Virus record (IMG/VR): IMGVR_UViG_2563366977_000001
Coordinates: 1-64,000 of that record
DNA length: 64,000 nt
Origin: a virus
Taxonomy: Duplodnaviria; Heunggongvirae; Uroviricota; Caudoviricetes
Reading direction: 5' to 3' (one strand)
The position numbers and the translations under genes were made by a program. The notes beneath the pieces were generated by a model, which worked only from the letters and a program-made list of their open reading frames with translations, was not told where the DNA came from and searched no databases. Positions within the stretch are counted from its first letter, which is position 1. Each line of letters begins with the position of its first letter. Below are positions 32,762 to 41,533 of the stretch, one piece after another.

Positions 32762-32785
32762 AAAGCCCACCTTAAGGTGGGCTTC
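32762..32785 (+). terminator. terminator hairpin
   Basis: aaagcccaccttaaggtgggctt. Confidence 0.5.
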
Positions 32786-32985
32786 GCCAGAAATTATTTT
32801 CTGGTATTCAGAACGCCATTACCGGACTTTGCCTTGACCAAGTATCACAACAGGCTTGACCTGTTATGATAGCTGGTTGCGGGATGTCTGAATTTCTTCA
32901 GTCTGCTGCATCCTCGAAGGTTTGGTTCAACATGTACCATTCCTTCACCGTCATAATAGTGAACTATTCACGTCCTTACAAACAC

Positions 32986-38947: not shown

Positions 38948-39889
38948 TTAACTAACAATCCAGTCGGTCGCTGCTACATCTTCTGGCTGTAAATCAATCG
39001 CATAGATCTTGCCGTCGCGAATGGTGCGCCAGTTTTTCCGTGAGCCTCTTTCGGGCCATACCCAGACACTTTCAGGCCAGGATGCTCGACGGCATACGGT
39101 TGCATACCCTGTTTTAATCTTCTCTCTGGCGGTATGCAACGACAGGTTTGCCTTTGGACTTTCAGGCACAGGATGGTGAATGGCCTGAAATAGCCCCATC
39201 TTGGGATGATACCAGCGTTTGTTGCGTGGTTCTGCCTCCGACATAACCTGCTTAAAGGCTTTCCGGAAGGGGGCCAGGGCCACAATGGAGCGCCGCGCAA
39301 GCAAACCGTCGGGAGTTAAAAACTCATGCGTATCAGTGGGTATCCGGTAAGCGTTGACCAGGTTACGGCATTTGGCTTCAGTCAGGCCACATTTCGCCGC
39401 CAACTGGCGGTAGCCAATGTAGCCTTCCGGAATATTACCTTTCTTGATCTGCTCGACGGTTTCAGCGACTTTGGACACTTGTGCCGATACTTCGGCTACC
39501 TGGGCATTAACGGCGTTGATCCGGCGTTCATGCTCAAGATGCATTTGCGCCATTTCAGCCAGAATTTCGGCTTTTGATTTTAACTGTACCCGGGCATTCT
39601 CCAGTTCGCGCCAGCGGTCCACCAGCCGGGCGGTGAATTCGGGAGAGAGCTGCGCGACGACGACAATACTATCGCGCTTGCCTTGCTCGCCTTCGAAGAC
39701 ATAGACCGGATCTTTGACAACCTTCCCTAAGTTATTGATTCTTTCGACGAACTCATTTTGAGTTTCTCGGATGACACCGCTAGCCATCATATTGCGAATG
39801 GTACGTAAAACATTGCCGTGACGACTACCAACTAACTCTGCAATATCTAGGCTACTCATTGTCGCTTTTTGAGAGATGGACAGATTCAT
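38948..39889 (-). CDS. ant: phage antirepressor (Rha/Ant family)
   Basis: N-terminal MSSLDIAELVGSRHGNVLRTIRNM (Rha-type regulatory domain) plus C-terminal domain; start overlaps the upstream small ORF, as icd-ant does in P1. Confidence 0.55.
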   Translation of the reverse strand: MNLSISQKATMSSLDIAELVGSRHGNVLRTIRNMMASGVIRETQNEFVERINNLGKVVKDPVYVFEGEQGKRDSIVVVAQLSPEFTARLVDRWRELENARVQLKSKAEILAEMAQMHLEHERRINAVNAQVAEVSAQVSKVAETVEQIKKGNIPEGYIGYRQLAAKCGLTEAKCRNLVNAYRIPTDTHEFLTPDGLLARRSIVALAPFRKAFKQVMSEAEPRNKRWYHPKMGLFQAIHHPVPESPKANLSLHTAREKIKTGYATVCRRASWPESVWVWPERGSRKNWRTIRDGKIYAIDLQPEDVAATDWIVS

Positions 39890-40104
39890 CAGTGCACCTC
39901 CACGCAGTTCATCGGCAGATTCCAGTAATTGAGGATCTCCATCGCATCAAGAGTGAAGCGAGCAGCAAAAATGCAGGGTTCTTCGGGAAGGTATGAGCGC
40001 GCTTCTGCTTCGGTTGCAGCCATGACGCAGATATACAGGTGTTTTTGGCAGGAATAGAAACGCCAGATAAATTCAGAATGAGTTGGGGTAGGGATAGTAG
40101 CCAT
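39889..40104 (-). CDS. small protein in the Icd position upstream of ant
   Basis: 71 aa; assignment by synteny only. Confidence 0.25.
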   Translation of the reverse strand: MATIPTPTHSEFIWRFYSCQKHLYICVMAATEAEARSYLPEEPCIFAARFTLDAMEILNYWNLPMNCVEVH

Positions 40105-40119
40105 ATTGGCAGCCTCCTT

Positions 40120-40400
40120 TTGCTAATTTAAGGAGCTACCGCGTGAGGTCTCAATCTCAATGGCGGTAGCACTGGCTGGGTTGAGACTACCGGCGCAAAA
40201 GGGAACCGGCCTGCCTTTCGGCAGCCCAGCCAGCACTACCATTGATCTTGGAGCTATACGCTACGTATGGCTGTGCGATGGCATGACACAAAAAAAGACG
40301 CTTTCGGCGTCTGTGTCGCCTTTTGCATTATCCGGGGTCTCAATCCCGGCACCCGTTTTTCTAAGGTGCCGTAGAAATATACCTCACGATAATGCCAGGG
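40120..40400 (-). ncRNA. candidate structured antisense regulatory RNA (c4-like) in the ant leader
   Basis: Dense hairpins and repeated ggtctcaatc (x2) versus ttgagact; no ORF of 60 aa or more; operator-like motif at the promoter end. Confidence 0.3.
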
Positions 40401-40915
40401 CGCAACAGTCAGTATTTTATGCTTTGGCGGATTTCTTCCGGGCTTGCTTGCAGGCGTAGGCCATTGCTTTAGCTTTCACTTCATCCAGCTTTCCGGTGAT
40501 CACTTCTTTTCCGAGAGTGACAAACCAGTCATAGCAACCGCCAGTGATGTTCTGGATTTGAAAGTTGAGGTAGCGAACGGTCATTTTGACACCCCCAGCG
40601 CGAGTAAAGAATGCAGATTATCGCGTGAGTGGCGGACAACGAGTGATGGGAAAGGACAGTAGCTGTTCATAGTGTAGTGACTCCTTGCTTTCGGAGCCGC
40701 CATCGACTGTTCCACGGTCTGGTGGCGGCGCAATAAAGGTTGGAACACCGTGAGTCAACGGGGGCTTTTCAGCCACCTATATTGCACCGCCATTGGTATG
40801 GCGGCGGCAATCATACGAAAAACCAAACGGTTTGTCTCAAAAAGTTGACCGGTGTACCAATCGGTTGTGAATGTACAACGGCGAATCTCACAATTCAACT
40901 TAAAATGTTAGAAAA

Positions 40916-41533
40916 TTAATTCATTAATTCAGTCACCATCTGATACAACGTCATTTCATCAGCATTGTGCCGCCTGAAATCTGCTTTGCCGCCTATTTTT
41001 CCATCAGCATGAACAGGAACCAACCAGGGGTATTGCTCGCGGATCTCTGCTGGCGCTGCGTGTTGATGGTGCCATTTACACAAAGGGAGGACGTATTTAT
41101 GCGCGTTCTCTGCTGTTCTCCCAAAGATGTGGTGCAGGGATACCACAGGGCTATGCTGTCCGTGCATATGGCAGGCAATGCAGGGGAGAGCACCGATGGC
41201 AGTTTGTATCCGGCGCTCATCTGCTGTGAGTGTTCTGCCTTTCAGGCCGCGTGACGCGCGCGTTTTTTTGACAGGAGCAGAAGCGGCCTTCTCTTTTCTT
41301 CGCTGTTCATATTGCTTCGCTTTTTCAATTTTCTTTTGCCGATATTCAGGCGATGCGGCTTTTTCTCGCGCACGCTGCTGCTGGCGTTGAGCTTGCTGAA
41401 GACGCTTTGCCCTTTGTTCCTCCCGCCATTTCGGATCAGCCAGTTTTTGCAGGGCTTTTTGTGTCTGTTTCTCCCAATAGCTTTGCTTCATAGAAATACC
41501 CGGTTTGTCTACATAGCCGCTATGGTTGATCAA
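40916..41533 (-). CDS. HNH endonuclease with basic N-terminal region (P1 Ref-like)
   Basis: CIACHMHGQHSPVVSLHHIFGRTAENAHKYVLPLCKWHHQ HNH motif; K/R/Q-rich N-terminus; operator palindrome directly upstream. Confidence 0.5.
   Translation of the reverse strand: MINHSGYVDKPGISMKQSYWEKQTQKALQKLADPKWREEQRAKRLQQAQRQQQRAREKAASPEYRQKKIEKAKQYEQRRKEKAASAPVKKTRASRGLKGRTLTADERRIQTAIGALPCIACHMHGQHSPVVSLHHIFGRTAENAHKYVLPLCKWHHQHAAPAEIREQYPWLVPVHADGKIGGKADFRRHNADEMTLYQMVTELMN

Follow-up and report, generated by a model that had tools for sequence, protein, structure and literature searches.

Introduction

The immI operon of the phages P1 and P7, with the c4 antisense RNA, icd and ant1/2, was reportedly described by Citron and Schuster in 1990, and the genome of Escherichia phage D6, a P1-like plasmid prophage (NC_050154), is said to have been published by Gilcrease and Casjens in 2018. 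In the present study a control region of this kind was analyzed in a stretch of 64,000 nucleotides (nt) of viral DNA, positions 1 to 64,000 of the IMG/VR record IMGVR_UViG_2563366977_000001 (Caudoviricetes), which as a whole is called the window. The region concerned, 40105 to 40915, lies between the gene ref and an icd-like gene, and is very probably an immI-type immunity control region of a D6-like phage-plasmid with two c4 antisense modules, termed c4-I and c4-II, that follow each other on the minus strand. Examined were RNA folds, complementarities and their geometry, covariation of c4-I, conservation of c4-II and gene identities.

In P1 (NC_005856) the immI region comprises an operator, the operator-controlled promoter P51a and the downstream promoter P51b, the sites a1 and b1 with a terminator-like hairpin, c4, the sites a2 and b2, the latter on the icd ribosome-binding site, and icd overlapping ant; the system of c4, Icd and Ant has been described in PMC8201110. 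According to a passage of PMC2190699 that cites Hartmann et al. (1995), the c4 RNA of P1 and P7 is processed by RNase P. The site names used here were taken from the annotated P1 record, where a' is the 3' single-stranded c4 segment, pairing with a2 directly after c4, and b' is the loop of the second c4 hairpin, pairing with b2 on the icd ribosome-binding site. The motifs C4 (RF01695) and c4-a1b1 (RF03163) were described by Weinberg et al. (2010; PMC2864571).

Two further systems are close. In the Salmonella prophage Gifsy-1 a c4-like region and an antirepressor gene are directly preceded by an RNA of the isrK family with a terminator (isrK-orf45-anrP), and mapping of the isrK promoter and start, partial read-through of the terminator, Hfq binding and trans-activation of antirepressor translation have been reported (Hershko-Shalev et al., 2016; PMC4825925). 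That work does not describe the region as c4; that IsrK acts by c4 titration is what we infer in the present analysis. For the D6-like plasmid pYU39_89 the order ref, hypothetical coding sequence of 168 nt, isrK non-coding RNA, c4 non-coding RNA, icd and rha was tabulated (PMC6799933, Table S1), and a second c4-icd locus beside repL was noted (PMC6799933).

Compared with these systems, the window holds the same components in the same order as P1 immI and shares with it the c4 fold, nearly the same offsets of a2 and b2, specificity placed in two short loops, and the promoter logic. It differs from P1 in its recognition sequences (CUGUCAA and UCACUAAC in P1, GUCUCAA and CCUUUUGC in the window), in its antirepressor (Ant1/2 in P1, Rha-type in the window), in having no operator beside the P51b-like promoter, and in an extra c4 module, consisting of c4-II, a leader open reading frame (ORF) and an ORF of 55 amino acids (aa), between the operator and the standard module. 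With Gifsy-1 the arrangement of isrK-like RNA, terminator, c4-like region and antirepressor gene is shared, a short sense ORF inside c4-I is the counterpart of orf45, and the processed Gifsy-1 species STnc1160 of about 80 nt would fit a c4 RNA; unlike Gifsy-1, the window has a separate icd-like gene between c4 and the antirepressor gene. Both Rfam motifs were matched, C4 above its threshold for c4-I, and c4-II has no a1b1 partner. The locus is the same as in D6 and pYU39_89, with the order of the latter, but neither the D6 record nor the pYU39_89 table lists an RNA between ref and the 168-nt coding sequence. Because the c4-I module is already annotated in pYU39_89, where c4 stands at the place homologous to c4-I (PMC6799933, Table S1), it counts as known; the new part is c4-II, which is without annotation in the records of D6 and pYU39_89.

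The c4-I module

Over 39800..41100 the window is 96.7% identical, along the full length, to D6, whose record gives the minus-strand gene order ref, three hypothetical ORFs of small size (one of which runs the other way), an Icd-like gene, the anti-repressor gene and pmgF, with no RNA feature annotated across the corresponding ref-to-pmgF region. In PLSDB, 96 plasmids cover at least 80% of an 821-nt query from the locus, and homology to P1-like plasmids starts at about 40412.

A first-pass annotation, made from the letters of the window alone, had singled out the 811-nt leader upstream of the icd-like gene as poor in ORFs, highly structured and a candidate for a c4-like antisense RNA as in P1 immI, and every element listed in it is present at its position. 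No minus-strand ORF of at least 60 aa was found in 40105..40915; the 55-aa ORF is preceded by GGGGG (40596..40592), 7 nt before its ATG. The leader folds at -287 kcal/mol, compared with -240.7 +/- 7.6 kcal/mol in 20 dinucleotide shuffles (z = -6.1). The repeat GATTGAGACC, two copies of which had been proposed to flank their complement, occurs exactly twice in the 64 kb (40345..40336 and 40156..40147), both times on the minus-strand transcript, and the complementary motif AGTCTCAA has its single occurrence between them (40188..40181). From the end of the downstream copy to the icd ATG (40104) the distance is 42 nt, where about 45 nt had been given. The complementarity itself is real; its length was overstated, as just 7 nt pair (GUCUCAA/UUGAGAC), with the A of AGUCUCAA opposite a C. 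In terms of the C4 model, AGUCUCAA lies within the single-stranded a' segment, and the two GAUUGAGACC copies are the target sites a1 and a2.

The identification as c4 is borne out by an Rfam C4 match of 76 bits over the full model, by the P1-like layout, by covariation, and by the Icd-like and anti-repressor genes downstream. The earlier interpretation was correct and at the same time incomplete: of the pairings and of the c4 RNAs, two each, it had recognized just one, and it had overlooked the pairing of b' with the b sites, the terminator in the isrK-like element, the leader ORF of 29 codons and the second c4-like RNA. The c4-I RNA folds into a long closing stem, two inner hairpins and a single-stranded 3' junction (minimum free energy, MFE, -49.1 kcal/mol, z = -6.3). 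Upstream of it the isrK-like element consists of a 5' hairpin, a hairpin with a1 in its loop, b1 and an intrinsic terminator; c4-a1b1 (RF03163) matches here weakly, at 21.7 bits, starting at 40382. The bipartite motif UUGAGAC-N-GCAAAAGG occurs three times in the window, all within the locus and the third time as c4-I itself on the other strand, and in none of 100 shuffles. Downstream, the stop of the icd-like gene overlaps the start of the anti-repressor gene (UGAUG), an overlap that points to translational coupling. Coordinates and family matches of all features are given in Table 1.

Covariation across related loci, which had been named in advance as a check, was found. The set of 48 related loci, which included D6 and the window and otherwise came from viral contigs and metagenomes, contained five a'/b' combinations: GUUCCAA with CCUUUGAC (22 loci), GUUCCAA with CCUUUUGC (14), AGACCAA with CCUUUGAC (7), GUCUCAA with CCUUUUGC (4, the window and D6 among them) and GUUCCAA with CUUUAGUGG (a single locus, L034). 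In 46 of the 48 all four c4-I target sites hold the same positions and show perfect complementarity over 7 nt or more; L034 is one of the two exceptions, and there the b2 pairing is kept by a G.U pair. As a1 and b1 of the isrK-like element change together with c4-I in the relatives, the sequences change in concert at three places, which makes it all but certain that c4-I acts as in P1. The recognition loops of c4-I are hypervariable in the D6-like population, and the type of the window and D6 is among the rarest in it (4 of 48 loci).

The same variation bears on a quite different explanation, in which the leader is mainly protein-coding and its RNA-like features are by-products of the 99-aa ORF on the plus strand (D6 orf84) or of the 39-codon sense ORF in c4-I. 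D6 does annotate orf84 on the opposite strand, the Prokaryotic Genome Annotation Pipeline (PGAP) places an 'ash family protein' over c4-I in many plasmids, the 39-aa translation matches Pfam PF10554 Phage_ASH at 26.8 bits (cutoff 26), and the equivalent orf45 of Gifsy-1 is translated and required for antirepressor expression (PMC4825925). However, the variation tracks RNA pairing and not codons, the a'/b' changes being matched at four distant sites, and the sense ORF ranges from 14 codons in P1 over 39 in the window to 72 in L030, with single-base indels between the sites. For the 99-aa ORF neither Pfam nor NCBIfam gave a match and PHROG just a weak one (E 0.0016), and structured-RNA models score far above chance, so that a coding origin of these features is extremely improbable. 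Open frames on the plus strand persist with different lengths in L034 and L030; the 99-aa ORF is probably spurious, and the Phage_ASH family may in part have been built on translated c4 RNA.

The c4-II module

Between the operator-like motif and the 55-aa ORF a second full-length match to C4 was obtained at 42.3 bits; since the gathering score of the family is 45, c4-II is termed c4-like and not a curated family member. Its fold, a long closing stem with two inner hairpins, has the c4 architecture (MFE -36.5 kcal/mol, z = -5.3). It ends in ...GCCACCA, and both c4-I and c4-II carry a 5' AUGG at the start of the stem and a 3' RCCA after it. The a' segment and the whole b' loop have exact complements downstream, of which b2-II overlaps the Shine-Dalgarno sequence of the leader ORF, and the two targets follow the RNA at offsets of 3 and 34, compared with 4 and 35 for c4-I and 3 and 32 for P1. 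With both strands counted, the 64 kb contain the combination UGGAACA-N24-GAGUCA a single time, compared with 0.1 expected, and the remaining 46 kb of D6 lack it; when the 120 nt downstream of c4-II were shuffled, both sites appeared in order in 12 of 200,000 cases.

In D6-like relatives c4-II scored 38-40 bits in ten of the 11 loci scanned, and its loops and targets were identical in all 57 loci examined; because they do not vary, only conservation and no covariation could be shown. This conservation stands out against its surroundings, since the 290 nt around c4-II differ from the window by 25-26% in the lineage of L022, L026 and L030 and by 38% in L024. Not one of the 26 recognition and target nucleotides has changed in these divergent lineages, for which the probability at the flanking rate is about 4e-4 and 4e-6, respectively; one to two differences first counted among the 26 were artefacts of gap placement, as the ungapped sequences keep GAGTCA. 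An alignment of c4-I, c4-II and P1 c4 with MAFFT was too poor for counting pairs, and stem pairs were compared by script instead. Five sequence variants of c4-II keep the fold, and in the stem four of six variable pairs are preserved or improved (U.G to C-G, U.U to C-G or U.G, A-U to G.U, U-A to U.G).

Beyond the D6-like elements c4-II was not recovered. Scanning 185,579 species genomes for an exact 17-mer yielded 16 matches in unrelated taxa, taken as chance, blastn against phages returned D6 only, and scans of metagenomes and viruses by way of the 55-aa protein found close relatives only, all with identical c4-II loops.

At the upstream end of the module stands the operator-like motif TGTTAGAAAAT, which the first-pass annotation had placed at about 40906 and which indeed recurs in the window, with seven exact copies and eight with one mismatch, 15 in all compared with 1.67 expected and a number reached in none of 100 shuffles. 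Several copies form intergenic inverted pairs (41537/41556, 44762/44781, 26837/26856), and the motif is conserved in all related loci including L034, the most divergent. Judged by this pattern, TGTTAGAAAAT is probably the site of a C1-like repressor. A promoter-like pair, Pa, starts 7 nt downstream of the motif, and its hexamers are conserved in lineages about 75% identical and read TTGATA-17-TACATT in L034; in its position, which is that of P51a in P1, Pa is a candidate repressor-controlled promoter. For a second pair, Pb, directly before c4-II, GAGACAAA and CGTATGAT are nearly invariant islands in a variable stretch, which suggests a promoter role. In a third pair, PisrK, 6 nt separate the end of the -10 hexamer from the start of the isrK model; this hexamer, TATATT, is placed with respect to the first a1b1 hairpin, as compared by eye, just as the annotated -10 of P51b is in P1, so that PisrK would be the P51b equivalent.

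Two candidates in this stretch were discarded. UUGAGAC at 40840..40834, considered as a third target of c4-I, shows no covariation, since GAGACAAA is unchanged in relatives whose c4-I a' is GUUCCAA or AGACCAA; it suits the -35 of Pb. A weak terminator-like hairpin at 40862..40847 loses its U run in divergent lineages.

The frame of the leader ORF that follows c4-II is kept through indels of -3 and +9 nt in the L030 lineage, which is about 75% identical; the start ATG annotated in D6, at 40703, is not conserved. No family match was obtained for the 29-codon ORF of the window. In L024, however, the ORF after c4-II encodes an Icd-like protein of 61 aa (NF033153, 47 bits), and therefore the 29-codon ORF is most simply a shrunken icd; the module was probably once a standard c4-icd unit. 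The 55-aa ORF occupies the place of ant in such a module. It represents a real, narrow protein family, with 16 homologues of 61-100% identity, those on long contigs (about 50-94 kb) resembling D6-like elements. An AlphaFold model of the protein (predicted local distance difference test, pLDDT, 85.7) shows four strands and a C-terminal helix, for which the PDB gave no fold match with an E value below 1; nothing significant was found in Pfam or NCBIfam. The gene presumably coupled to the leader ORF encodes a 55-aa protein that is not recognisable as an antirepressor in comparisons with Pfam, PHROG and PDB. In some D6-like elements an IS605-family insertion with genes for TnpB and a Y1 transposase lies directly after the 55-aa ORF (L035; L036, 2672..4361; L037). 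The c4-II module is intact in the elements bearing IS605, and in L035 and L037 no c4-I or isrK match was found.

Table 1. Features of the immunity control region and its neighbouring genes; positions refer to the window
Feature	Position	Strand	Remarks
Operator-like motif TGTTAGAAAAT	40906..40916	+	begins at last base of ref stop codon
Pa, promoter-like pair	40870..40898	-	TTGAAT (40898..40893), 17 nt, TACATT (40875..40870); sequence reading
Pb, promoter-like pair	40810..40838	-	GAGACA, 17 nt, TATGAT; promoter scan, predicted start about 40803, just before c4-II
c4-II	40718..40797	-	Rfam C4, full length, 42.3 bits; E 1.1e-4 for whole window against all 4227 families
c4-II b' loop UGACUC	40757..40752	-	6 nt, unpaired
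c4-II a' segment UGUUCCA	40747..40741	-	7 nt, single-stranded
a2-II target UGGAACA	40708..40714	-	exact complement of a'; offset 3 after c4-II match
b2-II target GAGUCA	40678..40683	-	exact complement of whole b' loop; overlaps Shine-Dalgarno AAGGAG (40686..40681) of leader ORF
29-codon leader ORF	40581..40670	-	3' part of D6 orf86; stop overlaps start of 55-aa ORF (AUGA)
55-aa ORF (D6 orf85)	40417..40584	-	phrog_7786, full length, 1.8e-43
PisrK, promoter-like pair	40376..40405	-	TTGCGC (40405..40400), 18 nt, TATATT (40381..40376); sequence reading
isrK-like / c4-a1b1 element	40291..40369	-	Rfam isrK RF01394, 59.1 bits (gathering score 50)
a1 UUGAGAC	40343..40337	-	in loop of isrK-like hairpin; second, upstream target copy
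b1 GCAAAAGG	40326..40319	-	in isrK-like element; 8-nt pairing with c4-I b'
Intrinsic terminator of isrK-like element	40312..40296	-	stem, followed by U run; terminator scan
c4-I	40159..40246	-	Rfam C4 RF01695, 76 bits (gathering score 45), E 4.6e-13, full length (model 1-87)
c4-I b' segment CCUUUUGC	40202..40195	-	8 nt, held in a 12-nt loop
c4-I a' segment GUCUCAA	40187..40181	-	
a2 target UUGAGAC of c4-I	40148..40154	-	7-nt pairing with a'
b2 target GCAAAAGG of c4-I	40116..40123	-	8-nt pairing with b'; overlaps icd Shine-Dalgarno AAGGAGG (40119..40113)
99-aa ORF (D6 orf84)	40160..40459	+	antisense to c4-I and isrK-like element
39-codon sense ORF	40123..40242	-	wholly within c4-I and trailer; corresponds to Gifsy-1 orf45
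icd-like gene, 71 aa	39889..40104	-	NF033153 phage_ICD_like, 49.4 bits (cutoff 25); phrog_1426; D6 annotation
Anti-repressor gene, 313 aa, Rha/Ant type	38948..39889	-	phrog_63 anti-repressor Ant, 3.8e-61; Pfam Phage_pRha; D6 annotation

Relic or working repressor

The state of c4-II has to be weighed against the possibility that an older immI module is decaying here, stranded upstream after recombination had brought in a newer isrK-c4-icd-ant cassette. In this view c4-II would be its relic, either not produced at all or by now devoid of regulatory effect, and the downstream matches would be kept only by the young age of the whole block. Several observations speak for such decay and weigh against our reading of two c4 modules at work. 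The Rfam score lies 2.7 bits under the gathering score; the b' loop is shortened to 6 nt, compared with 12 in c4-I, so that the b pairing comprises just 6 bp; and of the six variable pairs in the stem two have lost pairing, each in a single lineage. The icd partner has shrunk to 29 codons, compared with the 61 aa of L024. An upstream a1/b1 decoy is lacking, neither UGGAACA nor GAGUCA occurring between Pa and c4-II, and in L034 c4-II is absent and the 55-aa ORF stands directly after the operator and promoter. The loops never vary and give no covariation of the kind that proved c4-I. On the side of transcription, Pa and PisrK agree with the sigma-70 consensus at 8 of 12 positions, below the threshold of the promoter scan, and the operator motif, which in P1 overlaps the -35, stands 7 nt upstream of it here. 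As regards the downstream module, the authors of the Gifsy-1 study attribute the action of IsrK not to c4 titration but to alternative structures of the mRNA together with an ORF within the c4-like region (PMC4825925).

A relic would, however, hardly be expected to keep all 26 recognition and target nucleotides in three lineages with flank divergence of 25-38%, at the chance given above for each lineage. Further, the changes in the stem mostly keep or improve pairing, the frame of the leader ORF and its AUGA overlap are kept through indels, and the -35 and -10 just upstream are conserved islands. On this evidence a relic is unlikely, and c4-II is probably a working repressor, as far as conservation of sequence and pairing can tell.

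With respect to specificity, duplexes were predicted from strictly unpaired segments. For c4-I the cognate ones reach -21.2 and -21.9 kcal/mol (two target sets), and the value is -16.0 for c4-II, -19.6 for P1 and -19.0 for a third c4 of D6, compared with -0.6 to -8.8 kcal/mol in all non-cognate combinations; c4-I and c4-II are thus predicted not to cross-react. An earlier naive duplex scan, with probes that contained stems, gave spurious GC-rich matches and was uninformative, and it was replaced by exact matching of unpaired segments. The c4-I a' of most relatives, GUUCCAA, has six or seven bases in common with the a' region of c4-II (UGUUCCAA/G), so that cross-pairing at the a sites could take place there and not in the window. 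The third c4 of D6 lies beside repL (NC_050154, 20964..21049), outside the window, together with a1b1, icd and a Roi-like ant (locus L038, 20964..21170, minus strand). Its a' is identical to that of P1 and its b' different, TGTTAGAAAAT is again found upstream, and the a1b1 match of this locus reaches 55.9 bits, compared with 21.7 for the element in the window.

Around c4-II (40696..40806, minus strand) four short segments have mutually exclusive pairings: a leader GCCGCCAU (40806..40799), the 5' strand AUGGCGG, the 3' strand GCCGCCA and a trailer AUGGCGGC (40703..40696). The pair of leader and trailer shows a double change from C-G to U-A in the L030 lineage. In the centroid of the 811-nt fold it is the leader hairpin that forms, in place of the c4-II stem. 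For c4-I and for P1 a comparable hairpin of 3' strand and trailer can be constructed, with a2 exposed in the loop. These alternative pairings may represent a processing or folding switch.

ARAGORN found no transfer RNA or transfer-messenger RNA in 39800..41100, and a permissive Rfam scan of the leader returned, beyond the matches to C4, isrK and c4-a1b1, just one at chance level. Elsewhere in the phage-plasmid, at 32762..32947 on the minus strand, there is a strong Rfam match to sroH (RF00372, 113 bits; gathering score 80).

Proposed mechanism

The mechanism proposed here, from promoter use, repressor binding and RNA processing to polarity, the decoy role of the isrK-like element and any function of the 55-aa protein, is built on the features in Table 1 and on analogy to P1. 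The downstream module (40412..38948) is a standard P1-type unit, in which a P51b-like promoter would start transcription at the isrK-like element, where a1 and b1 would serve as decoys and the terminator would be leaky. Transcripts that read through would carry c4-I, which by analogy to P1 would be excised by RNase P. Its a' and b' would then pair with a2 and b2 on the mRNA just downstream and cover the Shine-Dalgarno sequence of icd, and therefore translation of icd and of the overlapping antirepressor gene would be blocked. Premature termination of transcription would be added if the polarity known from P1 is carried over. Because the isrK-like RNA contains a1 and b1, it could titrate c4-I, and such titration would explain the trans-activation of antirepressor translation by IsrK in Gifsy-1.

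In the upstream module (40916..40417) a repressor-operator motif and two promoters would govern c4-II, the unpaired segments of which would pair with a2-II and b2-II and cover the Shine-Dalgarno sequence of the 29-codon icd remnant; this leader ORF would be translationally coupled to the conserved 55-aa protein. In the lysogen each c4 RNA would thus close one ribosome-binding site, and the antirepressor, Icd and the 55-aa protein would be kept off.

One may go further and see in the two modules a two-tier antisense gate on anti-immunity, a tentative view that we regard as possible and still doubtful. The invariant c4-II would hold back a 55-aa effector and, by polarity, limit transcription into the second tier, where the diversifying unit of isrK, c4-I, icd and ant would set heteroimmunity groups; together with the c4 on the repL side there would be three orthogonal c4 RNAs, and the 55-aa protein would be a new small immunity modulator.

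Implications for c4 RNAs in phage-plasmids

Taken alone, c4-I and its isrK-like partner are textbook P1-type immunity control and nothing new. The sites a1 and b1 in the isrK-like element would connect the trans-activation by IsrK in Gifsy-1 to c4 titration. As c4-II looks like a working c4 RNA and falls just under the Rfam cutoff, c4 copies in phage-plasmids may be under-counted. D6-like elements would carry three c4 RNAs with three specificities, and the five recognition types with their matched targets would offer a natural series for the evolution of heteroimmunity by loop swaps, beside an invariant sister RNA.

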